From positions 1 through 22,745 of the IMG/VR virus record IMGVR_UViG_2778261182_000009: a DNA stretch of 22,745 nt. One strand, written 5' to 3'. This DNA comes from a virus (taxonomy: Duplodnaviria; Heunggongvirae; Uroviricota; Caudoviricetes). Position numbers and translations under genes: made by a program. Below, piece by piece: positions 1 to 22,745 of the stretch. The notes below the pieces were generated by a model. The model made no database searches and was not told where the DNA came from. It was given only the letters and a program-made list of their open reading frames with translations. The first letter of the stretch is position 1. Each line of letters opens with the position of its first letter.

Positions 1-12
1 GTTGGTGGTGAT

Positions 13-195
13 ATGAGCCGAAAACACTGGACACACAGAATGCCGCGAACGGCGGTGAAATGGGCACTGGTAGCGATACTGGTGCCTTTTTTATTGGTGG
101 GGTGCGTCAGCCTGGATAAGGCACGCCAGCTTTTCGATACGGCTTCTCAGGTCTGCGAAATTGTTGACGGTGTTCGGCAGTGTCTGCAGAACTGA
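13..195 (+). CDS. Small secreted lipoprotein, putative o-spanin (Rz1-like) at the end of the lysis cassette
   Basis: 60 aa ORF with a hydrophobic signal segment ending in an L-V-G-C lipobox (KWALVAILVPFLLVGC) and two further Cys in the short mature part. GGTGGTG precedes the ATG at 13. The other two frames hit stop codons at 9-11 and 14-16, as expected if an upstream i-spanin gene ends in overlap. The position just upstream of cos matches the lambda Rz/Rz1 location. The upstream partner lies outside the window, so the call is tentative. Confidence 0.45.
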   Translation: MSRKHWTHRMPRTAVKWALVAILVPFLLVGCVSLDKARQLFDTASQVCEIVDGVRQCLQN

Positions 196-369
196 TCGCC
201 CGTAAGAGCAGAATATTTTGCTGAAAAATGAAGGGTGCTCCAGCGTCCGGAAAGCATGAAATTCTGTGTTTGCGGTCATTCAATAAAATAAATTCTTTCT
301 TTCGCCGCGAATACTCAAATGTTGATCAGCGCCTGCTGCGGTGACGGGCTTCGATATCAGGAGACGATG

Positions 370-666
370 ATGGAAAAAACAGAAAACAAACCGATTGTAA
401 TTGGTGCTGATGCTGCTCCGTTTAAGTTTGAGTTGTCTCAACTGGTGGAGATGCGCATCAGTGATGAATGGGGTGAGGTTAAAGCCCGCGCGCAGTATGC
501 GGATGGCGAAAACCAGTACTTGATCCACTACAAAGCTGCTGATGGTCGTGCCACAACGGAGTGGTTTGGTGAGTCAATGCTGGAAGCAACAGAAGATGAT
601 CGTCATCCTGGTTGTCCGGTATTTGCAGGTATGAAATTACCGGAAGGCGCAGTCGTTACTGAGTAA
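370..666 (+). CDS. Hypothetical acidic protein (moron-like ORF between lysis cassette and cos)
   Basis: ORF 319..666 in the six-frame track; AGGAG at 359-363 favours the ATG at 367 or 370 (MMEKTENKP...). I recognise no homolog from sequence. It sits where lambda carries bor and other accessory genes. Confidence 0.45.
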   Translation: MEKTENKPIVIGADAAPFKFELSQLVEMRISDEWGEVKARAQYADGENQYLIHYKAADGRATTEWFGESMLEATEDDRHPGCPVFAGMKLPEGAVVTE

Positions 667-730
667 CAGACATTACAGCAGCCCTTCAGTGTGAGGGGCT
701 GCGATAATGCAGGTGTTAGAGTGCGTGTAA

Positions 731-960
731 ATGATAATCGCTCCCATTTTCACGGGTCCTTTCCGGAATCTGAAACACCGAGGGTACGCGTACGCGCAAA
801 AACGCGCTATTTATGAAAATTTTCAGGGAAAAAGCAGATCCGTTCTTCTTCTGGCTAACCTGTTGTTTAATAGAGTTTTCTTGAAAAAAAGAAAGGATCT
901 GGCAGCGGTGATTTTTCGCTGAAAAAAGCGTTTTGAGATCCTTTCTTCTTTTTGTGAGGA
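731..960. other. Lambda-type cos packaging site (cosQ-like, cosN candidate, cosB-like)
   Basis: By-eye alignment to the lambda cos region: ATGATAATC...CACGGGTCCTTTCCGG (about 731-766) matches the lambda right end and cosQ; CGCTATTTATGAAAATTTTC (805-824) and CCGTTCTTCTTC (840-851) match lambda cosB. An inverted repeat AAAGAAAGGATCT / AGATCCTTTCTT lies at about 866-945. The site is immediately upstream of the Nu1 homolog, as in lambda. Confidence 0.65.
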
Positions 961-969
961 ATATGTGCC

Positions 970-1518
970 GTGAAGGTTAACAAAAAGAAACTGGCGGAGA
1001 TTTTTGAGTGCGATGTCAGAACAATCACTGGCTGGCAAAGTCAGGGGCTGAGAGTTTTGTCGGGGGGAGGCAAAGGTATCGAGGCCATGTTCAATACTGC
1101 AGAAGCCATTGAGTGGTATGCGCAGCGGGAAAAAGATATCGAAAACGAAAAGCTCCGCAAGGAACTGGAAGATTTGCGTGCGGCTGCAGAATCAGATTTA
1201 CAACCCGGCACCATTGACTATGAACGCTACCGGCTCACAAAAGCACAGGCTGACGCACAGGAGCTGAAAAATGCCCGCGAAGAAGGGCTGGTGCTGGAAA
1301 CGGAATTGTTTACCTTCATTCTGCAACGTGTGGCTCAGGAGATTTCGGGAATACTTGTACGTGTGCCGCTGACATTACAGCGTAAATATCCGGATATTTC
1401 ACCGTCACACCTTGATGTGGTGAAAACTGAAATCGCAAAAGCCTCCAATGTTGCAGCTAAAGCCGGTGAAAACGTGGGCAGGTGGATTGATGATTTCAGA
1501 CGCACAGAAGGCAGCTAA
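970..1518 (+). CDS. nu1: Terminase small subunit (lambda Nu1 family)
   Basis: GTG start at 970 with GAGGA upstream. The translation ([36 protein letters not shown]...[14 protein letters not shown]...[28 protein letters not shown]) aligns along its length with lambda gpNu1 (MEVNKKQLADIFGASIRTIQNWQEQGMPVLRGGGKG...). Confidence 0.9.
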
Positions 1519-3406
1519 TGCAGCCGGTGCGATAGCCACAGGGCTTTTATCTCTCAATATTCCGGTACCACTGACGACAGTTCAGTGGGCTGATCGACAT
1601 TATTATCTGCCGAAAGAGTCTTCATATACCCCCGGGCAATGGGAAACACTGCCGTTTCAGGTCGCCATTATGAACAGCATGGGAAATGACCGGATCCGCA
1701 CTGTTAATCTGATTAAATCGGCGCGCGTTGGTTACACCAAAATGCTGTTGGGGGTGGAGGCTTATTTTATTGAGCATAAATCCCGTAACAGTCTGCTTTT
1801 TCAGCCAACAGATTCTGCTGCAGAAGATTTCATGAAATCTCATGTTGAGCCAACGATAAGGGATGTCCCTGCATTGCTGGAGCTGGCTCCATGGTTCGGA
1901 AGAAAGCACCGCGATAATACACTCACCCTGAAGCGTTTTTCCTCCGGTGTGGGTTTCTGGTGCCTGGGCGGTGCCGCTGCTAAAAACTACCGTGAAAAAT
2001 CTGTGGATGTGGTCTGCTATGACGAACTCTCCTCGTTTGAACCGGATGTGGAAAAAGAAGGCTCGCCGACGTTGCTTGGCGATAAACGTATCGAAGGCTC
2101 GGTATGGCCTAAATCCATACGCGGCTCAACGCCAAAAATCAAAGGTTCCTGTCAGATTGAGAAAGCCGCGAATGAATCTGCGCATTTCATGCGGTTTTAT
2201 GTCCCTTGCCCTCATTGCGGGGAGGCCCAGTATCTGAAGTTTGGCGATGATGCGACGCCGTTTGGCCTGAAATGGGAGAAGGGTAAACCGGAAACGGTGT
2301 ATTACCTGTGTGAACATAATGGCTGTGTGATCCGGCAGTCGGAACTTGACCAGAGCGACGGACGCTGGATTTGTGACAATACCGGGATGTGGACGCGTGA
2401 CGGCCTGACATTTTACAGCGCCGGTGATGAGGAGATGTCGCCACCGCGCTCAATCTCGTACCACATCTGGACGGCGTACAGTCCATTCACCACCTGGGTG
2501 CAGATTGTCTACGACTGGCTGGATGCGCTGAAGGACCCGAACGGCGTCAAGACGTTTATTAACACCACGCTCGGGGAGCCCTATGAAGAGGCTGTGGCAG
2601 AAAAGCTGAGTTTCGAGTTATTGCTGGAAAAGGTCTGTCACTATGGCGCGCAGGTTCCCCTGCGGGTGGTTTACCTGACCGCAGGGATCGACTCCCAGAA
2701 AGATCGCTATGAAATTTATGTATGGGGCTGGGCTCCCGGCGAAGAAGCCTTTCTGATTGACAAGCAAATTATCATGGGGCGACCGGAAGACGAGGACACC
2801 CTTAAACGTGTTGATGCGGTGATCCGGAAAAAATACCGCCATGCTGACGGTACTGAAATTTCCATTTCCCGCGTCTGCTGGGATACCGGTGGTATCGACC
2901 AGGACATTGTGTATCAGCGTTCCAGAAAACACGGAACTTTTTTTGTGCTTCCCATTAAAGGAGCATCGGTGTACGGCAAGCCGGTGATCACCATGCCCAA
3001 AAAGCGCAACCAGCGTGGGGTGTTTTTGTGTGAGGTGGGCTCTGATACCGTCAAGGAAATGCTGTACGCCCGTTTTGCCCTGCCGGTGGTCTCTGCCAGT
3101 GAAGCCGCCCCGTATACCTTCCGTTTTCCGGATAACCCGGACATTTTTTCGGAAGAAGAGGCGCGTCAGATCGTGGCGGAAGAACTGGTGGAGAAGGTGG
3201 TTAATGGCAGGGTGAAACTGCTGTGGGATAAAAAAGGGCGACGCAACGAAGCCCTCGACTGCCTGGTATATGCCTATGCTGCCCTGCGTATTTCAGTTCA
3301 GCGATGGCAGCTGGACCTTGAGGCACTGGCCCGGGCACGAAGAGATGAGCAGGACGAGGATGATATGAGCCTGGAAGAAATCGCGGCTGCACTGAGTGGA
3401 GGATAA
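1490..3406 (+). CDS. A: Terminase large subunit (lambda gpA family)
   Basis: ORF 1448..3406; homology to lambda gpA begins at the in-frame ATG at 1490 (MISDAQ..., AGGTGGA upstream). Long conserved blocks include [103 protein letters not shown]. Confidence 0.92.
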
Positions 3407-3409
3407 GTG

Positions 3410-3619
3410 ATGATTTATACACATGAGATGCTTTGCGAAGCGCGTCGGGCGCTGCATGAACTGATGATCGGGCGTGCTGTGGCTTCAGTCAGTAAGAACG
3501 GACGGCAGGTACAGTATTCGCGGGCGACGATTAATGAATTACGGCGATATATTGAGGAAATTGAAAGTGCGCTTGGAATGTCAGGTCGTCGCCGTGGCCC
3601 TGCAGGAGTACGACTGTGA
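3410..3619 (+). CDS. W: Head-tail joining / head completion protein (lambda gpW family)
   Basis: About 69 aa; the translation ...EARRALHELMIGRAVASVSKNGRQVQYSRATINELRRYIEEIE...RRRGPAG matches lambda gpW (...[27 protein letters not shown]...RRRGPAG). GGAGGA lies 6 nt upstream of the ATG at 3410; a GTG at 3407 is an alternative start. Confidence 0.8.
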   Translation: MIYTHEMLCEARRALHELMIGRAVASVSKNGRQVQYSRATINELRRYIEEIESALGMSGRRRGPAGVRL

Positions 3620-5187
3620 GCGGGGAACTGGTGGATCTTCATGGGCAACCTCTGCGGCATAGCATGGGATATTCCGGGGGTGGTACCGGATTTGGCGGGC
3701 AGCTTGCGGAATGGCTGCCTGCACCGGAAAGTGCTGATGTGGCACTCTTACCTTCCATTCAGCTGGGTAACGCCCGTGCGGACGATTTGGTCCGTAACAA
3801 CGGTATTGCCGCAAATGCTGTGGAAATTCATAAAGACCATATTGTCGGGCACATGTTTCGCCTGAGTTACCGACCCAACTGGCGCTGGCTGGGGATGTCG
3901 GAAGCTGATTCGCATGCCTTTATTGAAGATGTTGAGGCGGCGTGGATGGAATATTGCGATCCGGTGTTTGGTTCGATGGATGTGGAAGGGCGTCGCTCGT
4001 TTACCGAATTTATTCGTGAAGGGGTGGGGGTCCATACTTTTAACGGTGAAATTTTTGTCCAGCCCGTATGGGATACGGAATCCACGTCATTATTCCGGAC
4101 AAAATTCAAGACCATCAGTCCGAAGCGCGTCAGCACGCCCGGTTATGGCATCGGCGATCGTTTTATGCGTGCCGGAGTGGAAATCAACCGTTACGGAAAG
4201 GCGATTGCTTATCATGTTCAGGACGATGACTGGCCTGGCTACGGTGTCAGTAACTGGACACGGATTGCGGCGACGCTGCCCTCCGGGCGACCGGGAATGA
4301 TCCATGTGTTTCAGCCGCAGGAGGACGGACAGACGCGCGGGGCCAACCAGTTTTATTCCGTGATGGAGCGCCTCAAGATGCTCGACACACTGCAGGCAAC
4401 ACAACTGCAGTCGGCGGTGGTGCGGGCGATGTATGCCGCGACGATTGAATCCACACTGGATTCGGAAAAAGCATTTGAATATATCGCCGGGGTGGGAGAT
4501 GGCGGTAAAAACCCCCTGAACACCATCATGAAAGGGTATGCGCGCTATTACGCCACCAATACGGTAAAGATGGGTGGGGTTCGTATTCCGCATCTTTATC
4601 CGGGGGATTCACTGAATCTGCAGACAGCACAGAATGCGGATAATGGTTTCTCTGAACTGGAAAAGGCGCTGTTACGTTACATTGCTGCCGGACTGGGCGT
4701 GTCCTATGAGCAGCTTTCCCGTGATTATTCACAGGTCAGTTATTCCAGTGCCAGGGCATCCGCCAATGAGTCGTGGCGGTATTTTATGGGGAAACGAAAA
4801 TTTGTGGCCAGCCGTCTGGCGTCACAGATGTTTGCCTGCTGGCTGGAGGAAGCCCTTATTCGCGGTGTGATCCGCCCACCGAAATCCCGTTTCTCATTCT
4901 GGGAGGCTCGTTCCGGGTGGTGTCGTGCCGAGTGGATTGGTGCCGGCCGCATGGCGATTGATGGCCTTAAGGAGGTGCAGGAGGCGGTGATGCGTATTGA
5001 AGGTGGCCTGAGCACGTACGAGAAGGAGCTGGCCCTGATGGGTGATGACTATCAGGAGATTTTCCGTCAGCAACTGCGTGAAAGCCAGGAGCGACAGGCC
5101 GCCGGTCTTCCCCGCCCCATCTGGATAAAGGATACGTTTCAGCAGCAGATCCGACAGACAACGGGAGAAAAAGGCGATGCGTCGTAA
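3616..5187 (+). CDS. B: Portal protein (lambda gpB family)
   Basis: 523 aa, GTG start overlapping the W stop. Strong alignment to lambda gpB: GGGTGFGGQL, GNARADDLVRNNG, HVFQPQEDGQTRGANQFYSVMERLKMLDTLQATQLQSAVV, SLNLQTAQNADNGFS, LLRYIAAGLGVSYEQLSRDYSQVSYSSARASANESW, WIGAGRMAIDGLKEVQEAVMRIEGGLSTYEKE. Confidence 0.92.
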   Translation: MSGELVDLHGQPLRHSMGYSGGGTGFGGQLAEWLPAPESADVALLPSIQLGNARADDLVRNNGIAANAVEIHKDHIVGHMFRLSYRPNWRWLGMSEADSHAFIEDVEAAWMEYCDPVFGSMDVEGRRSFTEFIREGVGVHTFNGEIFVQPVWDTESTSLFRTKFKTISPKRVSTPGYGIGDRFMRAGVEINRYGKAIAYHVQDDDWPGYGVSNWTRIAATLPSGRPGMIHVFQPQEDGQTRGANQFYSVMERLKMLDTLQATQLQSAVVRAMYAATIESTLDSEKAFEYIAGVGDGGKNPLNTIMKGYARYYATNTVKMGGVRIPHLYPGDSLNLQTAQNADNGFSELEKALLRYIAAGLGVSYEQLSRDYSQVSYSSARASANESWRYFMGKRKFVASRLASQMFACWLEEALIRGVIRPPKSRFSFWEARSGWCRAEWIGAGRMAIDGLKEVQEAVMRIEGGLSTYEKELALMGDDYQEIFRQQLRESQERQAAGLPRPIWIKDTFQQQIRQTTGEKGDAS

Positions 5188-6793
5188 TTTATCGCATATT
5201 GCCGCCATGGCATTTAATGAACCGCTTTTACTGGAGCCCGCCTATGCGCGGGTTTTCTTTTGCGCGCTGGGTAAAGAGATGGGGGCCGGCAGCCTTGCCG
5301 TTCCTCAGCAGGCTGTTCAGCTTGATGCTGATGGTATGCAACTGGCTGTGACTGACTATATGGCGGGCGGTCAGCGTCCGGCAAAGAGTTACCAGGTGAA
5401 GAATGGCATCGCCATTCTGCCGGTGAGCGGCACGCTGGTGCATAAACTGGGTACCCTGCGCCCTTACTCCGGCATGACAGGCTATGACGGCCTGACTGCC
5501 CGTCTTCAGATGGCGGTGAATGATCCGGATGTGCGCGGCATTTTGCTGGATATCGACAGCCCGGGCGGTCAGGCTGCCGGGGCGTTTGACTGTGCTGACA
5601 TGATTTACCGCCTGCGGGAACAGAAGCCCGTGTGGGCGCTGTGTAATGATATGGCCTGTTCAGCCGCCATGTTGCTGGCGGCAGCCTGTACGCGTCGGCT
5701 GGTCACGCAGACGGCAAAAATTGGTTCGATTGGTGTGATGATGGCGCACACCAGTTACGAGAAACAACTGGCACAGGAAGGGGTGGACATCACGCTGATT
5801 TACTCCGGGCAGCACAAGGTTGACGGCAACAGTATTCAGGCATTGCCGGCAGGTGTGCGTGCAGATTTTCAGCGCCGTATTGATGAGGCCCGCCGGATGT
5901 TTGTCGACAAGGTGGCGCTTTATACGGGGCTGAGTTCAGAGGCGGTGATGAATACCGAGGCTGCCGTTTATGACGGTCAGGCAGGCATTGATGCAGGCCT
6001 GGCTGATCAACTGATTAATGCTGCAGATGCCGTTGAAGTGATGGTTTCTGTACTGAATGACTCTGTTACGAAGGAGAATGCAATGACTGTTAAAAATCTC
6101 ACCGTTGCTGAAGCGGTGGCCCAGGAAAATCAGCGCGTGATGGGGATCCTGAATTGTCAGGAGGCGAAAGGGCGCGAGCAACTGGCGCAAATGCTGGCAG
6201 GTCAGCCTGGAATGACGGTTGAGCAGGCGAAAACGTTGCTTGCAGCTGCGCCGGTTGCCGGTACTGACAGCACGGGTGATCAGATTATGGCGCTGCCGGA
6301 AGCAAAGGGGCGTGAGCAACTGGCACAGATGCTGGCAGGTCAACCGGGGATGACGGTGGAGCAGGCGAAAGCGTTTCTGGCAGCAGCCCCTGCTGCCAGT
6401 GCTGCAGGCACAGGCGATCAGATTATGGCGTTGCCGGAAGCTAAAGGGCGTGAACAACTCGCGCAGGCGCTGGCTGAACAGCCGGGAATGACCGTTGACC
6501 AGGCAAAAACGTTACTGGCGGCGGCACCGGTTGCCGGTTCTGCAAGTGTCGGCGATCAGATTATGGCGCTGCCGGAGGCGAAAGGGCGCAAGCAACTTGC
6601 ACAGGCACTGGCAGAACAACCGGGAATGACGGTGACGCAGGCGAAAACGTTGCTGGCAGCTGCACCGGCGGCATCGCAACCGTCACAGGAAACACTTTTT
6701 GATCGCTTTATGGCACAGCATGCTGCCAGTGCGGTTTCCGGAGGCGGAACTGCCGGGCACGGAGAAGAAGATCTGCTGATGAGTATGCCGTAA
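5177..6793 (+). CDS. C: Head maturation protease / minor capsid protein C (lambda gpC, S49 peptidase family)
   Basis: The N-terminus MRRNLSHIAAMAFNEPLLLEPAYARVFFCAL matches lambda gpC (MTAELRNLPHIASMAFNEPLMLEPAYARVFFCAL). The protease core is conserved (PVSGTL, PYSGMTGY, PVWALCNDMACSAAMLLAAA, TGSIGVMMAH, LIYSGQHKVDGN, TEAAVYDGQ...IDAGLAD). The C-terminal part overlaps the Nu3 scaffold frame as in lambda. Confidence 0.88.
   Translation: MRRNLSHIAAMAFNEPLLLEPAYARVFFCALGKEMGAGSLAVPQQAVQLDADGMQLAVTDYMAGGQRPAKSYQVKNGIAILPVSGTLVHKLGTLRPYSGMTGYDGLTARLQMAVNDPDVRGILLDIDSPGGQAAGAFDCADMIYRLREQKPVWALCNDMACSAAMLLAAACTRRLVTQTAKIGSIGVMMAHTSYEKQLAQEGVDITLIYSGQHKVDGNSIQALPAGVRADFQRRIDEARRMFVDKVALYTGLSSEAVMNTEAAVYDGQAGIDAGLADQLINAADAVEVMVSVLNDSVTKENAMTVKNLTVAEAVAQENQRVMGILNCQEAKGREQLAQMLAGQPGMTVEQAKTLLAAAPVAGTDSTGDQIMALPEAKGREQLAQMLAGQPGMTVEQAKAFLAAAPAASAAGTGDQIMALPEAKGREQLAQALAEQPGMTVDQAKTLLAAAPVAGSASVGDQIMALPEAKGRKQLAQALAEQPGMTVTQAKTLLAAAPAASQPSQETLFDRFMAQHAASAVSGGGTAGHGEEDLLMSMP
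6083..6793 (+). CDS. nu3: Scaffolding protein (lambda Nu3-like), nested in-frame in the 3' part of gene C
   Basis: An in-frame ATG at 6083 is preceded by AAGGAG at 6071-6076. The downstream sequence (MTVKNLTVAEAVAQENQRVMGILNCQEAKGREQLAQMLAGQPGMTV...) resembles lambda Nu3 (…ITAAVAAENSRIMGILNCEEAHGREEQARVLAETPGMTV…). Separate expression is inferred from the lambda precedent. Confidence 0.55.
   Translation: MTVKNLTVAEAVAQENQRVMGILNCQEAKGREQLAQMLAGQPGMTVEQAKTLLAAAPVAGTDSTGDQIMALPEAKGREQLAQMLAGQPGMTVEQAKAFLAAAPAASAAGTGDQIMALPEAKGREQLAQALAEQPGMTVDQAKTLLAAAPVAGSASVGDQIMALPEAKGRKQLAQALAEQPGMTVTQAKTLLAAAPAASQPSQETLFDRFMAQHAASAVSGGGTAGHGEEDLLMSMP
6161..6670 (+). repeat. In-frame tandem repeat, about 4 copies of 138 bp (46 aa), inside the C/Nu3 scaffold coding region
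   Basis: Copies begin at about 6161, 6299, 6437 and 6575. Each encodes EAKGREQLAQ(M/A)LA(G/E)QPGMTV(E/D/T)QAK(T/A)(L/F)LAAAP...GDQIMALP; the last copy diverges after AAAPAAS. Seen directly in the nucleotide and protein sequence. Confidence 0.85.
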
Positions 6794-8264: not shown

Positions 8265-8266
8265 GA

Positions 8267-14826: not shown

Positions 14827-16251
14827 ATGCATGGATTAACACTGACGACAGCAGGCGCGGCAGAGATTGAGGCTGCCTACCAGTCAGGACAGGTGGTGAC
14901 CATCACGCACGTGCTCACCGGTGATGGTGGCGGTCAGAAACTGCCTGAAACACCGGATGAAATGGCTGCAATGACAGGGCTGTATGGTCAGTTTGGTCAG
15001 GAGCCACTTTCTGCCGGTGAATCCGGAGAAGGATTTATCCGTGGTGAAATTGTTATTGACTGCAAAAAATACCCCGGAAAAACGCTGCGTGAACTGGGGA
15101 TGGTGAGTGCCAGCGGCACGCTGATAGCGTACGGGCGTTATCCGGATACGTATTTACCGGCACAGACAGATTCCGTCATCAAAGAGGTTATTCTGACGCT
15201 GGTACTGGGGCTGACGCATGCGCAGAATGTGACGCTGGAGCTTGACCCGTCCAGGGTGATTATCACGCAGGAGGCAGGAGATAAACGCTATCTGCGCATC
15301 AGCGAGAATCTTGCCGATGTGGAAGATAAAGATGAAGCAGTTGATAACCTCGGGTTAAAACCGACGGTGGACAAGGCAAAAAATGCCGTTCAGCGCGATG
15401 GTGACACCATGACCGGGGAGCTGAAAATCAGGAGAGTGAATGCGCTGCGAATTTTCGACGAAGCTTTTGGCCTGATTTTTCGTCGTTCGGAAGAGTGCCT
15501 GCACCTTATCCCTACCAGTGAAGGTCAGGGTGAAAATGGCGATATTGGCCCCCTGCGTCCGTTCACTATTAATCTGCGGACCGGTGAGATATCCATGTCG
15601 CACAAAGTGTCTGTTGGTTTTGGCTCTCAGGTGCAGGGCGCACTGGGTATCGGTGTTCAGAATGCGCTGGGCGGTAACTCAATTGCTTTCGGGGATAACG
15701 ATACAGGTATAAAACAAAACGGCGACGGCATTCTGGATGTTTATGCGAATGGACAGCATGTATTTCGTTTCCAGAATGGTGTGGCGACAGCGTTAAAAAA
15801 TATTCAGGCCGGAAATGCTAAAAAATTCACGTTATCCAGCGCCAACAACTCAACGAAAAACGCAACGTTTAATTTATGGGGCAATTCGTCCCGTCCTGTA
15901 GTTGCAGAGCTTGGTGATGATTCCGGCTGGCATTTTTACAGCCAGAGAAATACGGATAACAGTATAACGTTCGCTGTAAACGGACAGATGGTCCCGTCAA
16001 ATTATGGAAATTTCGATGCCCGTTACCAGACCAAATCAGGGGGCGTGCAGAATTTTCAGTACACCAGTGAGGTGTTTTACAACCCTGGTGGGAATGAGCG
16101 CAGCTGGACGTTTCGGGCACCTTCTGGTTGTGTTTTGTCAGGCATTAATGTTCAGGACACTGGCAGTAACTCTGCAGATAATATCGGTGGCGTGTATTAC
16201 AAACAGGCTCAGATTTATATTGATGGCGCATGGCGCTCAGTATCAGGTTAA
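14827..16251 (+). CDS. H: Tail fiber protein (P2 gpH family)
   Basis: 474 aa; the N-terminus ...LTTAGAAEIEAAY...TGDGGG is fiber-like, and a long block NALGGNSIAFGDNDTGIKQNGDGILDVYANGQHVFRFQNGVATALKNIQAGNAKKFTLSSANNSTKNATFNLWGNSSRPVVAELGDDSGWHFYSQRNTDNSITFAVNGQMVPSNYGNFDARY matches the P2 gpH family. Followed by a fiber assembly gene. Confidence 0.85.
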   Translation: MHGLTLTTAGAAEIEAAYQSGQVVTITHVLTGDGGGQKLPETPDEMAAMTGLYGQFGQEPLSAGESGEGFIRGEIVIDCKKYPGKTLRELGMVSASGTLIAYGRYPDTYLPAQTDSVIKEVILTLVLGLTHAQNVTLELDPSRVIITQEAGDKRYLRISENLADVEDKDEAVDNLGLKPTVDKAKNAVQRDGDTMTGELKIRRVNALRIFDEAFGLIFRRSEECLHLIPTSEGQGENGDIGPLRPFTINLRTGEISMSHKVSVGFGSQVQGALGIGVQNALGGNSIAFGDNDTGIKQNGDGILDVYANGQHVFRFQNGVATALKNIQAGNAKKFTLSSANNSTKNATFNLWGNSSRPVVAELGDDSGWHFYSQRNTDNSITFAVNGQMVPSNYGNFDARYQTKSGGVQNFQYTSEVFYNPGGNERSWTFRAPSGCVLSGINVQDTGSNSADNIGGVYYKQAQIYIDGAWRSVSG

Positions 16252-16264
16252 TTAAGGAAAAATA

Positions 16265-16792
16265 ATGGAACTCGTAAACGTTACGCGTTACTACCCTGAA
16301 GACATGCCTTATGGTGAAGGCATTCAGTATTTCCGTAGTGAAGACGGGCAGGATTTTTATGAATCACTGGATAAATTCACGAAGAAATACAAGCTGTGCA
16401 CGCATCCTGAAACCGGCATTATTTATTCCATGGCGGAAGATGTATCCCGTCTTTATCCCGTTGGTTTTACCATTGTGGAAGTGGATGAACTACCGGAAGG
16501 ATTTTGTATTGAAGCCCGCTGGTATTATAAAGACGGTGAAGTACTGCCGGTCCCTGTAGACTACCGGCAGCAGGCAGAGTCGGAGCGTGCACGTCTTACT
16601 GCGATTGCCGAACGGGAAATATCCGATAAGAAGACGGATTTACTTCTGGGAATCATCAGTGATGAGGAAAAAGAAAAGCTGACAGCCTGGCGTGTTTACG
16701 CAAAGGAACTGCAGGTGATGGATTTCAGCGCCATTGTGGATAAGAGCGCTTATGACAATATTGCCTGGCCTGAATCACCACAAAATATCTGA
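16265..16792 (+). CDS. G: Tail fiber assembly protein (P2 gpG family)
   Basis: 175 aa, immediately downstream of the fiber gene, with a suitable RBS (AAGGAAAAATA-ATG). The ...RQQAESERARLTAIAEREI... segment resembles the conserved region of tail fiber assembly chaperones. Confidence 0.75.
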   Translation: MELVNVTRYYPEDMPYGEGIQYFRSEDGQDFYESLDKFTKKYKLCTHPETGIIYSMAEDVSRLYPVGFTIVEVDELPEGFCIEARWYYKDGEVLPVPVDYRQQAESERARLTAIAEREISDKKTDLLLGIISDEEKEKLTAWRVYAKELQVMDFSAIVDKSAYDNIAWPESPQNI

Positions 16793-16809
16793 AAAAAGTG
16801 AATCAACAG

Positions 16810-16833
16810 ACCGCCTTTAAGGGCGGTTTTTTT
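16810..16833 (+). terminator. Rho-independent terminator after the tail fiber assembly gene
   Basis: ACCGCC (16810-16815), loop TTTAAG, GGCGGT (16822-16827), followed by TTTTTTT; located between G and the sheath gene. Confidence 0.6.
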
Positions 16834-16846
16834 ATGGGAGAAATGT

Positions 16847-18322
16847 ATGTCCGGACTACATGGTGTTGAAACCATTGAACTGACAACAGGCACGGTCGCT
16901 GTGCAGACCATCTCCACGGCAGTGATTGGCCTGGTGGGGACTGCGCCGGATGCTTCCGGTGGTGTGTGTGCTTCCGGCACTGCCGGTTCGTGGCTGCTGG
17001 GAACGGCGCTGGATTTCACGGCGAAACAGGAAGGCCGGGCCGGCAATAAGATTTCTGTGGTTGCCGTCGCGGCCACAGAACAAAGCGCGCAGACCACGGC
17101 CTTACTGGAAGGTACAACCCTGACGATAAAGCTGGGGACGGATGAACACAGCCAGGTTAACGCCACGGTGGACCGTGTGACTGAAGTGGTGAATGCACTG
17201 GGTGATTCACCTGTGACGGCGGCGGTCAGTACCCTGAATGCAGGGGGAGCTGAAAATAATGTGGTGTCGCCGTTCAACCTGACGCTATCCGGCGGGGAAG
17301 ATGAGGCGTTCCCGGTTAATACACCGGTTGTGGTGGCAGGAGCCATTACTCAGGCAGGAAAACTGGGGGCTGCCGGGACACTGTATCCGGCCCTGCGAGA
17401 TATTTTTGACCAGACCGGTGCACTGGTGATTGTGGTGCGTGCGGAAAGTAAACCGAAAGCGAAAGAGGCTGAACAACGCGCGGCGGTGATTAAGGCCATG
17501 GAAGCGCTGACAGAGAGTAAAGGTGTGACGGGCTATCAGCCGCGCATTCTCATTGCCACGGGTTACAGTGAGGATGATGGTGTGGCAAAGGCGCTGGAAA
17601 CGTATGCCGCGAAGCTGCGGGCCGTGGCCTATATCGACTCTCCCTCAATGGCAACGCCGCAGGATGTGGTTCAGCGGCGCGCATCCTTTGGCGGACGTGT
17701 GGAACTGCTGCGCCCGCGCGTGTCAGTAACGGATGACAGCGGGCAGACGGTATTTCGTCCGTATTCGGCGCGCGCTGCCGGGCTGCGTGCCCGTATTGAT
17801 TACGAAAAAGGGTGGTGGTGGTCCAAATCAAACCAGGACGTGATGAATATCACCGGTCTGGAGCAGGTGGATACGTTTATTCTCGGGGAGCAGAACTGCA
17901 CGGCAAACCTGCTGAACATGGAAAATATCTCCACCATTATTCGTCACGACGGCTTTAAGCACTGGGGGAACCGTCTGTGTTCATCCCACAGTCAGTGGCG
18001 TTTTGAGCCGGTACGCCGCACTGCAGATGTGATTGAGGACAGCATCCAGGAGGCCATGCTGCCTTATGTCGATCGCCCGCTTGATAGGGATGTGGCGGAC
18101 GACATTCTTGGCAGTATTAATGCCTATATGCGTCAGCTTAAAAATCTGGGCGCGATCCACGGTGGCAGTGCCTGGCTGAATGATGAACTGAACACAGCAG
18201 AAACCCTGGCCGCCGGGCAGTTGTATATCGATTATGACTTTGGACCGAAGTCACCACTGGAGCGCCTGACACTGCGGGCGATGATTAACAATAAACTGGC
18301 GCTGGAGGAACTGACGGTATGA
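16847..18322 (+). CDS. FI: Contractile tail sheath protein (P2 gpFI family) with an N-proximal insertion
   Basis: 491 aa; the N-terminus MSGLHGVETIELTTGTVAVQTISTAVIGLVGTAPDA matches P2 FI ([37 protein letters not shown]). The C-terminal half is well conserved (GLRARIDYEKGW, IRHDGFKHWGNR, AETLAAGQLYIDYDFGPKSPLERLTLR). An extra segment of about 110 aa has no P2 counterpart. Confidence 0.9.
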   Translation: MSGLHGVETIELTTGTVAVQTISTAVIGLVGTAPDASGGVCASGTAGSWLLGTALDFTAKQEGRAGNKISVVAVAATEQSAQTTALLEGTTLTIKLGTDEHSQVNATVDRVTEVVNALGDSPVTAAVSTLNAGGAENNVVSPFNLTLSGGEDEAFPVNTPVVVAGAITQAGKLGAAGTLYPALRDIFDQTGALVIVVRAESKPKAKEAEQRAAVIKAMEALTESKGVTGYQPRILIATGYSEDDGVAKALETYAAKLRAVAYIDSPSMATPQDVVQRRASFGGRVELLRPRVSVTDDSGQTVFRPYSARAAGLRARIDYEKGWWWSKSNQDVMNITGLEQVDTFILGEQNCTANLLNMENISTIIRHDGFKHWGNRLCSSHSQWRFEPVRRTADVIEDSIQEAMLPYVDRPLDRDVADDILGSINAYMRQLKNLGAIHGGSAWLNDELNTAETLAAGQLYIDYDFGPKSPLERLTLRAMINNKLALEELTV

Positions 18323-18837
18323 TTACGGGTGAAAAAAAACTGTTGCGCGCATGGGCGTTATTTCTTCCTGGTGGGATCCGTCTTCAGGGGGCACATGAAT
18401 ACACGCCGCCTGCCATTAATATCACGACAGTGGATATCAAAACCGGCGCAATGGATGCACCGGTGGCAGTGGATGATGGTATGGAGGCGCTGACCTGCTC
18501 GTTTAAGATTTATGGCTACGATGTTGCCATGCTGACACTGCTTGGATTACAGGCGGGGCTTTATTCGCCGGAGATTGTTGTCCGCCAGGCTTACAGGGTG
18601 GGGAATGCGACCAGCGGACAGGTGGAAACCCTGCAGGGGATGATCTCCAGTATCACGCCGGATGCGCGCCCGGCAACGTCACAGGCGGAGGCTTCGGTGA
18701 CGGTGGAGATGTCGCTGAGTTATTACCGTCAGGCTGTAGATGGTCTGGAAACCATCTGCATTATTCCGGAGGAATTTGTTCGTCGTATTAACGGCGTTAA
18801 TGTTCTGTCGGATCTGAAAAAAATCATCCGGGTTTAA
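18319..18837 (+). CDS. FII: Tail tube protein (P2 gpFII position and size)
   Basis: 172 aa ORF directly downstream of and overlapping the sheath stop (GTATGA), with GGAGGA upstream. Assigned by synteny and the FII-like size; direct sequence similarity is weak by eye. Confidence 0.65.
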   Translation: MITGEKKLLRAWALFLPGGIRLQGAHEYTPPAINITTVDIKTGAMDAPVAVDDGMEALTCSFKIYGYDVAMLTLLGLQAGLYSPEIVVRQAYRVGNATSGQVETLQGMISSITPDARPATSQAEASVTVEMSLSYYRQAVDGLETICIIPEEFVRRINGVNVLSDLKKIIRV

Positions 18838-18856
18838 TCCGGGTATCCGGTTATTC

Positions 18857-18884
18857 AGGCGGCTCAGGCCGCCTTTTCTTTTTT
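18857..18884 (+). terminator. Rho-independent terminator after the tail tube gene
   Basis: AGGCGGC (18857-18863), loop TCAG, GCCGCCT (18868-18874), followed by TTTCTTTTTT. Confidence 0.65.
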
Positions 18885-18897
18885 AAAGGAGATGCTT

Positions 18898-19200
18898 ATG
18901 TCGGAAAAAAACAGTGTTCCTGCCAGCAGCGTGGAAATTGTGTTATCCGTGCCGTATGTCACCGCATCAGGGCAGACGATCACGCACATCACCATGCGTG
19001 CACCCACCGTCCGCGATCGTCTGTTGCATCGACGGAGTACCAAACCGGAAGCAGAGGCTGACCTGGATATGATTGCCGGTCTTTGCGGGATGGATGCGGC
19101 GGACATGATGAACATGGAAGCGTGTGATTACCTGGCCCTGGAGCGGCAGTTTAATGTTTTTTTGCTGCCGCCGGTCCGGCGGAAGAAGACAGCATCCTGA
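18898..19200 (+). CDS. E: Tail assembly chaperone (P2 gpE-like)
   Basis: ORF 18892..19200; AGGAG at 18887-18891 favours the ATG at 18898. Small protein between the tube and tape-measure genes; its 3' end contains a T7G slippery run. Confidence 0.7.
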   Translation: MSEKNSVPASSVEIVLSVPYVTASGQTITHITMRAPTVRDRLLHRRSTKPEAEADLDMIAGLCGMDAADMMNMEACDYLALERQFNVFLLPPVRRKKTAS

Positions 19201-19337
19201 CAGCGATACGGCGTGCTGGTGCCTGGTTCGGGTGGTCTCCCGGAGATGTGATGGCGCTGCCGTATACGGATTTTGTGTCAATGATGCTGGCAGAGTCGGA
19301 AGAGAGGAAACGACGTTATGGCAACGGTTGGCGATAA
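18898..19337 (+). CDS. Tail assembly chaperone frameshift product (P2 E+E'-like), made by a programmed -1 ribosomal frameshift
   Basis: The zero frame reads ...NVFLLPPVRRKKTAS and stops at 19198-19200. The -1 frame opens right at the slippery site (a stop at 19152-19154 sits just upstream in that frame) and runs stop-free from 19158 to a TAA at 19335-19337 (FFAAAGPAEEDSILTAIRRAGAWFGWSPGDVMALPYTDFVSMMLAESEERKRRYGNGWR), overlapping the tape-measure start as in P2. Confidence 0.55.
19157..19164 (+). other. Slippery sequence TTTTTTTG for the -1 programmed frameshift (E to E')
   Basis: T-run at 19157-19163 followed by G; the zero-frame codons are GTT TTT TTG. This is the same heptamer class used for the chaperone frameshift in P2-like tail operons. 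Confidence 0.55.
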
Positions 19338-20970
19338 CCTTAAAGCGAATATCAGGATCGGCGGCACGATAGATCCGTCGTGGAAAAAATCGGTTGATGG
19401 ACTGAAGCACGGATTATCAGGGGCAACACAGGAGGTGGCTCGCCTGACACGCCAGCAGGATGTACTGAAACGAAAAATTCAGGCTGGTGCACTGGCTGGA
19501 CAGGATATTACTGAACTGCGAAAGCAGTATGAAAAGCTGGGCAAAAAAATTCATGATGCCACCGGAGAGCAGGACAAATTTAACCGTAAGCTGGCTCGTG
19601 CTGAACGTCTGGAACGCTGGAAAGGGCGGGCCGGGACGGTCCTTAAAACCGGTTTTGGGCTTTCTGTTGGTTCGGGGTTGATGCTGGCAGCGGGCACTAC
19701 CGCTGTGCTTAACCGGAATACGGAAACGGCAGAGCGGGCAGGGATAGCCCGCAGTTATGGTGTGGATTATGAAACCTATGCGGCATGGGATTCACTTGCC
19801 CGACTGATGGGGCTGAATGGTGAAAACATCGGTGATCTGTTTGAGGAGTACCGGAACAAGGTTTTTGACGATGATAATGGTGCCACGGATAAAGGGGCCA
19901 TTCAGGAGGTGTTTGGTGCGCTGGGGCTGAAAGCCGGGGTGATGGCCGGAAAAAGCAACCAGGAGCAGGTCGAATTTTTATTTGATCGCTTACTGCAGGT
20001 AGAGAATGAACAGGTGGCAGCCGGGATGGCAGATGCGTTGTTTGGTGGTGAGGCCAATAAAATTCTGACCTGGATGCGTCTGTCAGGAAAAACTTACCGG
20101 GAGCTTATCAGTGAGCAGAAACGCTATAACCTGGTGACAAAGGCAGGGGCAGATGGCGCAGTTCAGGGGCATATGGCGCTGTCAAATCTCAGTAATGTTC
20201 TGAGTTCGTCCATTGATGAAATCAGCGGGCAACTGGGTAAGGAGCTGGCACCACATATTCAACAGGTGACGGATGACCTTGCGGCCTGGTTTAAGTATGG
20301 TGGACTGGAAAAAATCCGGGCATTTATCCGTGATGATGCCCTGCCGGCGCTGATCGACATGGCAGCATGGATGTGGAAATTCGGAAAAGTTCTGGCTGGA
20401 ATCACACAAAAAGCCATTGAGTGGGGGTTAGCGGATGATCCACGAGAGGACCGGCGAGAGGTGCTGGAATATCTGGCAAAAATGGGGTCGCCGGAGCTGG
20501 CGAGAGCGGTGGCGCAGAAAAACGGTCAGGGTGAATGGTTTGATGAACTTATCAGGCAAAATCCGGACCTGACGAAACAGGTTGTACAGGCCTATAAAGA
20601 CACCCGCGGTTATTTCCCCTGGAATCATGACGATAAAAAGTTTGATGCATTTCTCGACCCTTTGCTGGGACCGAAGGAAGAACCTGATTTTAAGGCGATA
20701 AAAGAGAAATCCCGCACCTACATTGACGGACTTCCTGCGGCAGGTCAGGGACAGGAAAATCCTGATCGCCTTTCAGCCCTCCAGTATACACCCGGCAGTA
20801 TCAGCAAGGTGGAAGTAAAACCCACATATCAGATACGGGCCGAATTTAACATCACCCAGAAATCTGGCGAGGATGCCGGACAACTGGCAGACAGGGTGAC
20901 GAAAAATCTGGGGGATATTCATTTTGGTCAGCGTTCCCGTATGACTGATGGTTATGAATCCTGGGGGTGA
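19318..20970 (+). CDS. T: Tail tape measure protein (P2 gpT position)
   Basis: 550 aa, predicted largely alpha-helical (coiled-coil-like, with charged heptad-like runs), and a Gly/hydrophobic segment (GFGLSVGSGLMLAAGTTAVL). It lies after the E/E' chaperone genes and before U, as for P2 gpT. Confidence 0.82.
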   Translation: MATVGDNLKANIRIGGTIDPSWKKSVDGLKHGLSGATQEVARLTRQQDVLKRKIQAGALAGQDITELRKQYEKLGKKIHDATGEQDKFNRKLARAERLERWKGRAGTVLKTGFGLSVGSGLMLAAGTTAVLNRNTETAERAGIARSYGVDYETYAAWDSLARLMGLNGENIGDLFEEYRNKVFDDDNGATDKGAIQEVFGALGLKAGVMAGKSNQEQVEFLFDRLLQVENEQVAAGMADALFGGEANKILTWMRLSGKTYRELISEQKRYNLVTKAGADGAVQGHMALSNLSNVLSSSIDEISGQLGKELAPHIQQVTDDLAAWFKYGGLEKIRAFIRDDALPALIDMAAWMWKFGKVLAGITQKAIEWGLADDPREDRREVLEYLAKMGSPELARAVAQKNGQGEWFDELIRQNPDLTKQVVQAYKDTRGYFPWNHDDKKFDAFLDPLLGPKEEPDFKAIKEKSRTYIDGLPAAGQGQENPDRLSALQYTPGSISKVEVKPTYQIRAEFNITQKSGEDAGQLADRVTKNLGDIHFGQRSRMTDGYESWG

Positions 20971-21461
20971 AGATGGTGGATTTACTGGGCTGGGGTGTAA
21001 ACCGGCTTGAGCGTGAAGCATGGGATGCAGTGGGTTCATTAACGGAGGTGGCTTCCCGCGTCATGCTGTCGTTTGGTGAGTTTGAATTCAGTATCGATAC
21101 GGCAGCGTATAACGCCATGAAGCGCACCATGGAATGGCGGTGGGATGAACAGCAGCTTATCGGAAAAAACGACCTGCTGCAGTATACCGGCAAGGGAGCC
21201 AGAGCAATAACCCTTGAAGGTATGGTGCATGCAGGATTTCGTGACGGTGTGGGAATGGATGCCCTTGATACACTGGTTCAGATGGTGGATGACAATCCGG
21301 CACCGTACCTTCTGGTCTCAAGCACAGGTGATGTGATGGGGTATTTTGTTGCAACCTCCTATTCAGATAACACCACGTCCTTTCTTCCCGGCGGTGCGCC
21401 GAAGAACAAAACGTTCACACTGGAGCTGAAATACTATGGCGAAAAACTGGCGGACCACTGA
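20967..21461 (+). CDS. U: Tail protein U (P2 gpU family)
   Basis: 164 aa ORF with start overlapping the tape-measure stop (GTGA), positioned between T and X/D as in P2-like tail operons. Confidence 0.7.
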   Translation: MKMVDLLGWGVNRLEREAWDAVGSLTEVASRVMLSFGEFEFSIDTAAYNAMKRTMEWRWDEQQLIGKNDLLQYTGKGARAITLEGMVHAGFRDGVGMDALDTLVQMVDDNPAPYLLVSSTGDVMGYFVATSYSDNTTSFLPGGAPKNKTFTLELKYYGEKLADH

Positions 21462-21654
21462 CGGCGATATGCTGGATGATATCTGTCAGAGACACTATGG
21501 CAGCGCCGGAGTTAACCAGTCACTGGCGGCGGTGCTGGAGGCCAATCCGGGACTGGCTGACCTTGGTCCGGTATATCCGGCAGGTGTGGAAATCGTGTTG
21601 CCGGACTGGGTGTATGAACCGGAGGAAAAGGAGACGTTTCAGTTATGGGACTGA
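21436..21654 (+). CDS. X: Tail protein X (P2 gpX family, LysM-like)
   Basis: 72 aa; GDMLDDICQRHYGSAGVNQSLAAVLEANPGLADLGPVYPAGVEIVLPD aligns with P2 gpX (GDTLDAICVRYYGRTEGVVETVLAANPGLAELGAVLPHGTAVELPD). Confidence 0.8.
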   Translation: MAKNWRTTDGDMLDDICQRHYGSAGVNQSLAAVLEANPGLADLGPVYPAGVEIVLPDWVYEPEEKETFQLWD

Positions 21655-22745
21655 ATGAATATCTGCCTGATTTCAGCCTGACAGCAGAGGGTGAGGATAT
21701 CACGAAGGCCATAAAGCGGGGGCTGGCTGAACTGCGTTATACCGATAATGGTGCTGCCACAAAGCGCTCCGATGAACTGATGATAACCCTGTTCAGTGAG
21801 ACGATGGCGCTGCCGCCAAAAGGCGCGGTATTAACGCTGGGACTGGGATTCAACGGAAACCTGGTAAATAAAGGCAGTTTTACCGTCTGCCAGGTGGCAA
21901 GCGGTGGTCCTCCCCGTCGGATCACCATTTATGCCACCGCAGCCCCCATGAATGCGTCAAAACATGGCGCAGACGTGACCGCACTGAAAACCCGTGCGTT
22001 CAGCGATGTCACGCTGGGTGACCTGGTGAAAACGATCGCCACTGAAAATAATCTGGTGGCACGGGTCTCACCGGCGCTGGCAAAAATTCGTATCCCGTGG
22101 GTGATGCAGTCATCTGAATCGGATGCGTCCCTGCTTTCCCGGCTTGCAGGGATGTACGGTGCCACCAGTAAACCGACGAACGGTTACTGGTTATTTCTGG
22201 AGTATGGCGCATCACAGAGTACAGGCGGCAGGGATGCGCCTGTAATGACCATCACGCCGGGCATGGTGTCAGACTGGGATTACCGGGAGGGGGTACGGCA
22301 GGGCGCATCCGGAGGCGGAAAAGGAACAACAAAAAAAGGGAAAGTGGGTGTCAGATATTTTGACCCTCGCGACGGGAGAACGCGCGAATTTAAAGTGGAC
22401 GTGGAGTCCACAGACAAGCGACATCCATTCACTCAGCCGGATCAGGACACAGCAAAACACTGCGCAGACTCTAAGGTTAAACGTGTGCAGAAAGCCGGAC
22501 GCCAGATGACGATAACGTTGCCCTGCAGGCCCGCATTGTTGAAAGCGGGGGCGGAAATGCGTTTTATCACGCAGGGATTTGGGGTACGCGAGGATCATAA
22601 CTGGCAGGCTGAGTCGGTGGAGTTTTCACTGGCACCGGGGCAGGGATTTACGCTGAATCTGTCGCTGGCCACCGATATCTCGGCGAAAGGGAAAGCATCA
22701 GGGAAGAAGAAAGCGGATAAAAAAGGCGTGAATTATTACGGGTAA
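21645..22745 (+). CDS. D: Tail protein D / late control gene D protein (P2 gpD family)
   Basis: 366 aa, with the stop codon at the window end. Matches to P2 gpD include GAVLTLGLGFNG, KGSFTV, LGDLVKTIATENNL, SESDASLLSRLAGMYGA, and a basic Lys-rich segment; final gene of the P2-like tail cluster. Confidence 0.85.
   Translation: MGLNEYLPDFSLTAEGEDITKAIKRGLAELRYTDNGAATKRSDELMITLFSETMALPPKGAVLTLGLGFNGNLVNKGSFTVCQVASGGPPRRITIYATAAPMNASKHGADVTALKTRAFSDVTLGDLVKTIATENNLVARVSPALAKIRIPWVMQSSESDASLLSRLAGMYGATSKPTNGYWLFLEYGASQSTGGRDAPVMTITPGMVSDWDYREGVRQGASGGGKGTTKKGKVGVRYFDPRDGRTREFKVDVESTDKRHPFTQPDQDTAKHCADSKVKRVQKAGRQMTITLPCRPALLKAGAEMRFITQGFGVREDHNWQAESVEFSLAPGQGFTLNLSLATDISAKGKASGKKKADKKGVNYYG

Follow-up and report, generated by a model that had tools for sequence, protein, structure and literature searches.

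A lambda-type head and a distantly P2-like contractile tail in one late operon of an Escherichia coli prophage

How does a capsid of the phage lambda type come to stand, in a single run of genes, beside a contractile tail of the P2 type, and how would the two parts fit each other? The question is raised by a 22,745-nucleotide stretch of viral DNA (the window), which corresponds to positions 1 to 22,745 of the IMG/VR record IMGVR_UViG_2778261182_000009 and makes up the first 22,745 bases of contig NLPG01000017.1. An earlier reading made from the letters alone (the sequence-only reading) had implied here an unusual join between a lambda head and a P2 tail. We find that the window is very probably the late operon with which a prophage of E. 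coli, a temperate lambdoid myovirus, builds its virion; packaging and head genes of the lambda/phage 21 type are paired in it with a distantly P2-like contractile tail as a complete set. The architecture itself is already established, and this E. coli prophage is a further member of a recognised mosaic design.

The gene layout carries this reading. About 26 intact genes, all on the plus strand and either overlapping or separated by short gaps, run from cos and Nu1 to FII, then through j1 and j2 to V and on to D (Table 1). Profile searches with Pfam and PHROGs, combined with protein comparison against lambda, phage 21 and P2 by tblastn (threshold 1e-3), place the head families in lambda order in the first part, where all Pfam matches from Nu1 to FII score above their cut-offs, and P2-type tail families in the last 12 kb. 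Among the tail proteins, V and T are recognised only by PHROGs and tblastn, and the GPD match of the last gene is weak (25.9 bits against a cut-off of 30.1), yet its product is 39% identical to P2 gpD. The combination described by the sequence-only reading, in which lambda-type genes for cos packaging and a decorated head precede those for a P2-type contractile tail, is indeed present, with each named gene at roughly the place given. The gene list of that reading was nevertheless incomplete, as two further genes lie between FII and V (9065–9787 and 9799–10350, here called j1 and j2), and X sits between U and D, unlike in P2.

The two halves stand at different distances from their namesakes. 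The head module can be aligned to lambda, as had been claimed, at 65–69% nucleotide identity, but phage 21 is much closer, with a blastn match of 72–82% identity that covers 1094–8433 and ends inside FI. The proteins from Nu1 to E are 69–87% identical to those of phage 21, and the head proteins 50–67% identical to those of lambda, apart from FII (34%) and FI, which has no tblastn match to lambda FI; by the same search, neither gpW nor FII matches its phage 21 counterpart. From these comparisons, the head cassette of the window appears to share fairly recent ancestry with the siphovirus phage 21. Since the phage 21 similarity breaks inside FI (~8433), the distal half of FI and the core of FII are specific to the contractile-tailed relatives. 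The proposed collinearity with the P2 tail cluster stands as far as gene order goes, but the amino-acid identities of V, W, J, I, H, G, sheath, U, X and D to P2 are low (27–53%), the tube, E and T are undetectable, and at the nucleotide level only the fibre tip and a short part of J resemble P2. No window protein matches the P2 head region (187–6509) or the lambda non-contractile tail region (7977–22000) by tblastn, and sheath and tube genes are found in place of the latter. As judged by these comparisons, "lambda-type" and "P2-type" are therefore right as family labels, with a tail remote from P2 and a head nearer to phage 21 than to lambda.

Several finer features of the module are also supported. 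The cos site is real by homology: when window 684–985 is aligned with lambda and phage 21, each joined at its ends, cosQ (GGGTCCT) and a block on the right side of the nick region, CTATTTATGAAAATTTT, prove conserved. The cosN core differs from that of lambda, with GGTACGCGTACG/C at about 783–795 against GGGCGGCGACCT; the exact lambda cohesive end is absent, and its sole match, inside gene W with two mismatches, is no better than chance. A listed open reading frame at 731–922 is the cos site itself and was rejected as a gene. Within gene C, the predicted nested start of a Nu3-like scaffold gene is supported by an in-frame ATG at 6083, preceded by an AAGGAG Shine-Dalgarno sequence and aligning with the start of phage 21 gene 6. 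Likewise, the predicted −1 frameshift between the tail chaperones E and E′ finds support in a slippery heptamer, T TTT TTG, towards the 3′ end of E (19158–19164), where P2 has GGTTTTTTG, and in a −1 frame that stays open for 57 codons, to 19337. The frame listed at 19124–19372 is not E′, being in the wrong frame; the true extension would be the −1 frame from 19164.

Was the join between these two halves a novelty? It was not, since the same gene order is found in a known lineage. It occurs in the Vibrio phage Valp1, and the prophage-derived GenBank record vB_EcoM-569R10 shows the same order with homology in both halves. Among 5426 complete E. coli genomes, 78 (~1.4%) carry the FI-FII-j1-j2-V junction, many of them Shiga toxin-producing or enterotoxigenic strains from cattle and pigs, and 66 contain at least 80% of the window. 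Relatives of j1 were found in 207 IMG/VR contigs, in 18 species-representative Enterobacterales genomes and in 7 of 50,697 phage records. Of the 80 viral contigs kept from these 207, 27 had a lambda-type capsid gene, and 21 of the 27 also had the P2 gene order. The neck block FII-j1-j2-V recurs in Valp1, in the Hafnia phage yong2 and the Citrobacter phage Chris1, in 569R10, in the 18 Enterobacterales genomes and in the 80 contigs kept. The sequence-only reading had itself allowed that the whole order might prove to be a common and described lineage, and with Valp1, 569R10, the IMG/VR contigs and the E. coli genomes this is largely what was found.

The chromosomal setting completes the picture. 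Within 430 bp of the gpD stop the contig goes on into potB, potA, pepT, roxA, phoQP and purB, so that the tail ends at the junction of prophage and chromosome. The closest E. coli match, in strain 401651 (95.7% identity over 97% of the window), is a single lambdoid prophage with one integrase, about 47.5 kb long and integrated at the Qin site. Its genes run from int/xis beside rspB through dicB, relBE, hokD, RusA, Q, two holins and an endolysin to cos, the window module, a DinI remnant and a split ydfJ. A second relative is integrated at a tRNA-Ser gene.

Could such a module nevertheless belong to a prophage that is defective elsewhere, and thus give no infectious particles, or be put to another use in transduction-like or tail-only killing particles? 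This is the alternative that survives best, and we consider it unlikely without being negligible. Several points do weigh against a working phage and against individual parts of our reading. The contig starts at window base 1, so the left half of this copy of the prophage is cut off, and some relatives carry insertion sequence elements or frameshifted replication genes. At a nucleotide identity of about 90% or more, none of the 50,697 deposited phage records is a member of the lineage, which is thus without a cultured representative among deposited phages though it occurs in about 1.4% of complete E. coli genomes. Within the module, the nick positions at cos, the E/E′ frameshift and the late read-through proposed below are deduced by analogy, j1 is named from its PHROG label and gene position, and j2 from the fold of a model of moderate quality (predicted local distance difference test score, pLDDT, of 72, built from 9 sequences).

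On the other side, all of the ~26 structural and packaging frames from Nu1 to gpD are open, and the frameshift site, the nested start and cos are retained. Relatives at 88–96% identity keep every gene, which argues for purifying selection on a working virion, and metagenome-derived viral contigs of 42–44 kb exist. For these reasons we prefer the reading of the window as part of an intact temperate phage.

A second alternative takes the window as a recent hybrid of a lambda-like siphovirus and a P2-like phage of the Peduoviridae, with a young and possibly poorly adapted join. The 72–82% identity of the head block to phage 21 does speak for a fairly recent exchange of head genes with siphoviral lambdoids, and the tail order fits the V and F operons of P2. 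The tail proteins, however, are only 27–53% identical to those of P2, nucleotide similarity being limited to the J stretch and the fibre tip noted above; j1 and j2 match neither R/S of P2 nor Z/U of lambda in sequence; and both ogr and the P2 head genes are missing. The two halves are conserved together at similar divergence in Valp1, in 569R10 and in a Serratia proteamaculans prophage, which indicates an old association and not a recent event between lambda and P2. A young hybrid is therefore largely refuted and, in our estimate, very improbable. The pairing of this head with this contractile tail instead appears to be old and widespread, as judged from the homology of both halves in Vibrio and Enterobacterales phages.

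The remaining alternative, that a defective lambdoid prophage carrying head genes lies side by side with a P2-type tailocin or second defective prophage, can draw on the occurrence of P2-type tail clusters alone as R-type tailocins, on the R2 pyocin collar as the best structural match of j2, and on the missing left part of the contig, but it is scarcely credible, because FII, j1, j2 and V overlap or lie at most 12 bases apart, no integrase, att site, regulator or lysis gene stands between the halves and no boundary feature is seen at 9084–10334, the junction is kept in 78 E. coli genomes at several integration sites and in cultured phages, and the relatives are single prophages with one integrase, the closest of them as described above and the tail of the window abutting potB/potA.

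If the mosaic is old, where exactly does the head end and the tail begin? The sequence-only reading had placed the boundary between FII and V, and this is borne out by one relative, L046, which narrows it to the 3′ end of FII. Its j1, j2, W, sheath, tube and E are 93–99% identical to those of the window, but its head cassette is a different one (A 25%, B 23% and FII 44% identical). At the nucleotide level, L046 resembles the window from window base 1 until shortly after cosN (~803); the similarity is then lost and returns at 8999, 85 bases before the FII stop. At the protein level, the FII core of L046 is about 33% identical up to a common TLA motif, the crossover reads TLA|RGEPGR, and the last 25 FII residues, RGEPGRSTPAAPVRPSKRYGSQRA (RGEPGR...GSQRA), are identical. 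These crossovers show that the natural unit of exchange extends from cosB through the FII core (~803–8998), and that j1, j2 and everything downstream belong to the tail.

Across the loci compared, heads fall into two types. One is the lambda type with C, Nu3, D and E; the other has a small terminase of the DUF1441 family, gpA and portal proteins that are only distantly related, a fusion of ClpP and capsid, and a cement protein. The tail genes stand either in the P2 order or in one that runs V, sheath ... D, W, J, I, H, and each head type occurs with each tail order. In more than 80 loci, the C-terminal type of FII ("...PGRSTPAAPVRPSKRYGSQRA" as against "...PGKxQPxINKWS") tracks the tail class and not the head type. 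Co-inheritance of the whole of FII with the tail was considered and rejected, since the core is equally distant (32–38%) from siphoviral and myoviral FII and travels with the head in L046; only the C-terminal ~25 residues, from about 8999, follow the tail module.

How a lambda-type FII could dock onto a non-lambda tail was the puzzle that the sequence-only reading had left, and it becomes smaller once the neck genes are considered. The product of j2 would be the tail terminator, with the same fold as lambda gpU as far as its model goes; it has no Pfam family and no PDB sequence match, and its best structural match is the R2 pyocin collar PA0615. By profile comparison, neither j1 nor j2 gives any signal with lambda Z and U or with P2 R and S. 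The arginine-rich j1 product is probably a tail-completion protein; it has no Pfam or PDB sequence match, its AlphaFold model is poor (pLDDT 60), and Foldseek against the PDB returned nothing below E = 0.97.

In lambda particles, two parts of FII make the contact between its hexamer and the gpU ring, a beta-hairpin (residues 46–62) and a C-terminal loop (108–117). The P2 neck, in turn, has no stopper ring, the adaptor gpL binding the terminator gpR directly, and gpR has been described as homologous to PA0615 and to siphoviral terminators (P2 structure preprint). We infer that the neck of the present phage consists of the portal B, the adaptor W, the stopper FII and the terminator j2, so that a head completed in lambda style would meet a partner of the fold it already binds in lambda. 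That the tail brings its own terminator with the gpU fold, and that gpU is what lambda FII binds, would explain the compatibility of head and tail.

The crossover in L046 sits where the beta-sandwich of lambda FII ends and the terminator-contacting C-terminal loop begins. We therefore put forward, quite tentatively, that the C-terminal tail of FII (~25 residues, RGEPGRSTPAAPVRPSKRYGSQRA) is a portable docking peptide matched to the terminator and neck of the tail; such a role is possible and at present rather doubtful. Plain physical linkage could explain the pattern, since the sequence coding for the FII C-terminus overlaps the start of j1, and the C-terminal type would then simply follow the tail. 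If the docking peptide is true, two capsid systems, one with E/D/Nu3 and the other with the ClpP-capsid fusion, and with terminases and portals merely 23–25% identical, plug onto one contractile tail by swapping a cassette bounded by cosN and the peptide. Relatives with one tail and two head cassettes give the coordinates of a natural head-tail exchange unit to the base, and make the fit of head and tail directly testable.

How would such an operon be expressed? P2 uses separate late promoters, but promoter-like sites are not enriched in either half of the window (5 and 8 found against 8.5 and 10.5 expected). No ogr gene follows gpD, where the window ends at the gpD stop and the contig goes on into potB; Ogr-binding motifs were not searched systematically. 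Since Q and the lysis genes lie directly upstream in the relatives, a single Q-antiterminated late transcript is likeliest. On the plus strand, D, E, V, G and the tube gene are each followed by an intergenic gap that holds one of the strongest sites with a hairpin and a T run; the one between G and the sheath gene fills a gap of 54 bases. These hairpins are GC-rich (7188–7212, 8268–8288, 10956–10974, 16808–16829 and 18857–18874), and shuffled sequence contains roughly half as many terminator-like sites (10.3 where 20 were found, and 11.5 where 19 were found). These intergenic hairpins may tune gene dosage or messenger RNA stability within an antiterminated transcript.

Taken together, homology suggests the following course of assembly. 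RNA polymerase modified by Q would read the whole block as one late transcript, passing the hairpin and T-run sites, without P2-style late promoters and without an ogr gene. Nu1 would bind cosB, and gpA would nick cosN within its conserved flanks and lambda-unlike centre. The DNA would enter a prohead made of the portal B, the protease C with its nested scaffold Nu3, and the capsid protein E, after which D would stabilise the head, with FI assisting, and W and FII would close the portal in the lambda fashion.

The tail would be built separately, in the manner of P2 and the R pyocins, from a baseplate of V, W, J, I, D, U and X and from the fibre H with its assembly protein G; the tube would form around the 550-residue tape measure, aided by E and E+E′, and the sheath around the tube. 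After capping by the terminator j2, with j1 acting as a gpZ-like completion protein, the FII hexamer would dock on the j2 ring by the same kind of contact as between FII and gpU in lambda. For the particle, these genes predict a decorated head like that of lambda and a contractile tail about 85 nm long. This length uses a scale of about 0.15 nm per tape-measure residue, taken from Valp1 (596 residues, 90 nm) and from P2 (815 residues; 192 sheath subunits in six-fold rings, that is 32 rings, with a rise of 39.5 Å).

The coordinates of all features are collected in Table 1. For gpA they are those of the longest open reading frame; the start in annotated relatives is equivalent to 1490.

Table 1. 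Genes and sites of the window, with the matches on which each name is based (percentages are protein identities)
Feature	Position	Strand	Basis
Two small open reading frames, no assigned function	13–195, 319–666	+	phrog_7528 4e-37, phrog_1935 2e-60; between lysis genes and cos in relatives
cos region	745–960	+	cosQ GGGTCCT 754–760, cosN-equivalent ~783–795, cosB ~803–960
Nu1, small terminase subunit	970–1518	+	PF07471 3e-85; 87% phage 21, 52% lambda
gpA, large terminase subunit	1448–3406	+	GpA_ATPase 9e-55, GpA_nuclease 1e-68; 83% phage 21, 67% lambda
gpW, head-tail adaptor	3407–3619	+	PF02831 5e-24; 50% lambda W
gpB, portal	3616–5187	+	PF05136 2e-95; 73% phage 21, 62% lambda
gpC, S49 protease with nested in-frame Nu3-like scaffold gene (6083–6793)	5177–6793	+	PF01343 2e-33; 69% phage 21, 54% lambda
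gpD, head decoration	6831–7166	+	PF02924 2e-23; 74% phage 21, 53% lambda
gpE, major capsid	7236–8264	+	PF03864 1e-65; 83% phage 21, 59% lambda
gpFI, packaging chaperone	8312–8680	+	PF14000 2e-13; 40% phage 21
gpFII, head closure (stopper)	8680–9084	+	PF05354 3e-13; 34% lambda
j1, arginine-rich, in lambda gpZ position	9065–9787	+	phrog_27 "tail completion or Neck1" 6e-26
j2, predicted tail terminator	9799–10350	+	tail-terminator fold (model)
gpV, baseplate spike	10334–10957	+	phrog_9992; 27% P2 V; weak Phage_base_V and Apex matches
gpW, gp25-like baseplate wedge	10993–11349	+	PF04965; 39% P2
gpJ, baseplate wedge	11324–12238	+	PF04865; 40% P2
gpI, 861 amino acids	12231–14816	+	PF09684, PF02368, PF13306; 40% P2 (N-terminal domain only)
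gpH, tail fibre (tail-collar)	14827–16251	+	PF12571; 53% P2 (distal half)
gpG, fibre assembly	16265–16792	+	PF02413; 31% P2
Tail sheath, 491 amino acids	16847–18322	+	PF04984, PF17482; 35% P2, 63% yong2, 46% Valp1
Tail tube	18319–18837	+	PF04985; profile only, no P2 tblastn match
E, tail assembly chaperone	18892–19200	+	PF10109; profile only
E+E′, by putative −1 frameshift	18892–19337	+	slippery T TTT TTG 19158–19164
gpT, tape measure, 550 amino acids	19318–20970	+	phrog_3654 and tape-measure PHROGs; 34–42% Valp1, Chris1, yong2
gpU	20967–21461	+	PF06995; 32% P2
gpX	21436–21654	+	PF05489; 50% P2
gpD, baseplate hub	21645–22745 (stop codon included)	+	PF05954; 39% P2 gpD

In addition to the main argument, comparison with the relatives (numbered L001 and so on) brought out variation in several parts of the operon. 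At the packaging site, the central ~6 bases of the cosN-equivalent vary among relatives that are otherwise 90–96% identical (window 783–795; L001 14150–14170; L036, L044, L045, L054, L056 and L061). The centres seen are ACGCGT, CTGGGG, CATAGC, CGGTGG, CGGTAG, CATGGG and CTGTAG, set between the conserved flanks CACCGRGGGT and ACGCGCAAAAA, and the cohesive-end sequence appears free to vary in the lineage.

The small terminase varies too: Nu1 is merely 38–40% identical to that of the window (970–1518) in L038, L039, L041, L044, L056, L060 and L061, in which gpA stays at 93–95%, and in some of these relatives the sequence to the right of cosN differs as well. This looks like a swap of packaging specificity, involving small terminase and cosB, as between lambda and phage 21. 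Upstream of cos, the two small open reading frames (window 12–718) are 94.8% nucleotide-identical to 20678–21382 of the Stx2e phage phiP27, the remainder of which is unmatched. Within the scaffold part of gene C, Tandem Repeats Finder detects a 138-bp tandem repeat at 6160–6668 (3.7 copies, 79% match), which encodes the 46-residue unit IMALPEAKGREQLAQ.LA.QPGMTV.QAK.LLAAAP. Phage 21 has about 3 copies and lambda 1, and these copy numbers account for the gene C lengths of 538, 501 and 439 residues in the window, phage 21 and lambda, respectively.

On the tail side, gpI has 861 residues where about 180–200 are usual, its N-terminal P2 gpI domain being followed by an immunoglobulin-like domain (Big_2) and BspA-type leucine-rich repeats (LRR_5). 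The long form is also found in strain 401651, and the gpI of a relative in strain E41 has 196 residues; the extension may be an additional baseplate adhesin. The region from gpI through H and G is low in GC (0.46–0.50), and the identity of G is merely 35–41% in most relatives; H and G are a variable host-range cassette. The distal part of the fibre gene H (15660–16025) is 75% nucleotide-identical to P2 H (14191–14556), far above any other tail gene, which suggests that the receptor-binding tip has been shared or exchanged with P2.

Upstream of the lysis genes, some relatives carry toxin genes. In L119 (CP101978.1, 4018–5258), Q and the holins are separated by a Shiga toxin operon that matches the one in phage phiSTEC1575-Stx2k at 100% identity; the virion genes of that phage do not match the window. 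In L123, a gene similar to pertussis toxin S1 occupies the same place (5339–6064). In both relatives Nu1 is identical to that of the window and the genes for head, neck and baseplate are the same, the tail of L119 being covered only as far as gene J. The lineage may thus include contractile-tailed toxin-converting phages, which are rarely reported, and relatives with Stx2k or pertussis-like toxin cargo are candidates for them. As to the integration site, the 401651 prophage (L001, L030) occupies the ydfJ/rspB site of the cryptic prophage Qin of K-12 (L031) and has dicB, relBE and hokD in common with it. The idea that Qin is a deletion remnant of the lineage was not supported, the sole Qin match to the window being NohA (Nu1, 53%).

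How, then, does this prophage compare with the systems already known? Phage 21 and lambda share with it the cos layout (cosQ, cosN and cosB) and the collinear run from Nu1 to FII. They differ from it in the cohesive end and in FI and FII, which are strongly diverged, and the window has extra repeat units in its scaffold and lacks the tail genes Z, U, V, G/GT, H, M, L, K, I and J. The V and F operons of P2 share the orders V-W-J-I-H-G and sheath-tube-E/E′-T-U-D and the same slippery-site frameshift. Unlike P2, however, the window is without the head genes Q, P, O, N, M and L, sequence homologues of R and S, ogr and separate late promoters. The sheath has 491 residues against 396 in P2, the tape measure 550 against 815, and the P2 neck of portal, gpL and gpR, with no stopper, contrasts with W, FII and terminator here. 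X also lies between U and D in the R2 pyocin cluster PA0615–PA0628. The orthologues that define the Peduoviridae are the large and small terminase, the portal gpQ, the scaffold, the capsid gpN and the completion protein gpL (P2 structure preprint); the corresponding head genes of the window belong to lambda families, and none matches P2 187–6509 by tblastn.

Mosaics of a similar kind have been described in other hosts. The Wolbachia phage WO and the Xylella elements XfP1/XfP2 have been described as chimeric, their packaging and head genes being lambda-like and their baseplate and tail genes P2-like, the likeness being one of architecture, by description, in distant hosts. The HAP1-like phages have been described as having only the V and F tail operons in common with P2, that is, P2-type tails on non-P2 heads.

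For tail and neck, the closest deposited phages are the lambdoid temperate phages yong2 and Chris1 (sheath 63% and 61%, V 54–63%, j2 49–52%, j1 40–42%). Shared with the window lineage are the block FII-j1-j2-V, a terminase of the gpA family, gpW, a portal of the lambda family, and the lambdoid genes cII, Q and RusA. Their head differs, with a ClpP-protease/capsid fusion where the window has C, Nu3, D and E; terminase and portal reach 23–25% identity to those of the window, and the tail genes run V, sheath ... D, W, J, I, H, which is not the P2 order.

The most complete counterpart is Valp1, related to VHML and Vp58.5. It differs from the window lineage, which integrates in the chromosome, by its Vibrio host and by protelomerase and partition genes typical of linear-plasmid (telomere) prophages, a state that is putative in Valp1 and deduced from gene content. 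It has extra baseplate genes, including one for a PAAR-motif protein, and gives no homologue of the decoration protein D or of FI by tblastn. The contractile virion predicted for the E. coli lineage has a counterpart on electron micrographs of Valp1, which show a myovirus whose head measures 60 nm and whose contractile tail measures 90 nm. The structural genes of Valp1 follow the same order as the window from terminase to gpD, including j1/j2 and X between U and D, with identities of 42% for A, 41% for W, 48% for B, 35% for C, 34% for E, 29% for j1, 35% for j2 and 33% for V, and of 37% for J, 46% for the sheath, 36% for the tube, 34% for T, 49% for U, 51% for X and 53% for D.

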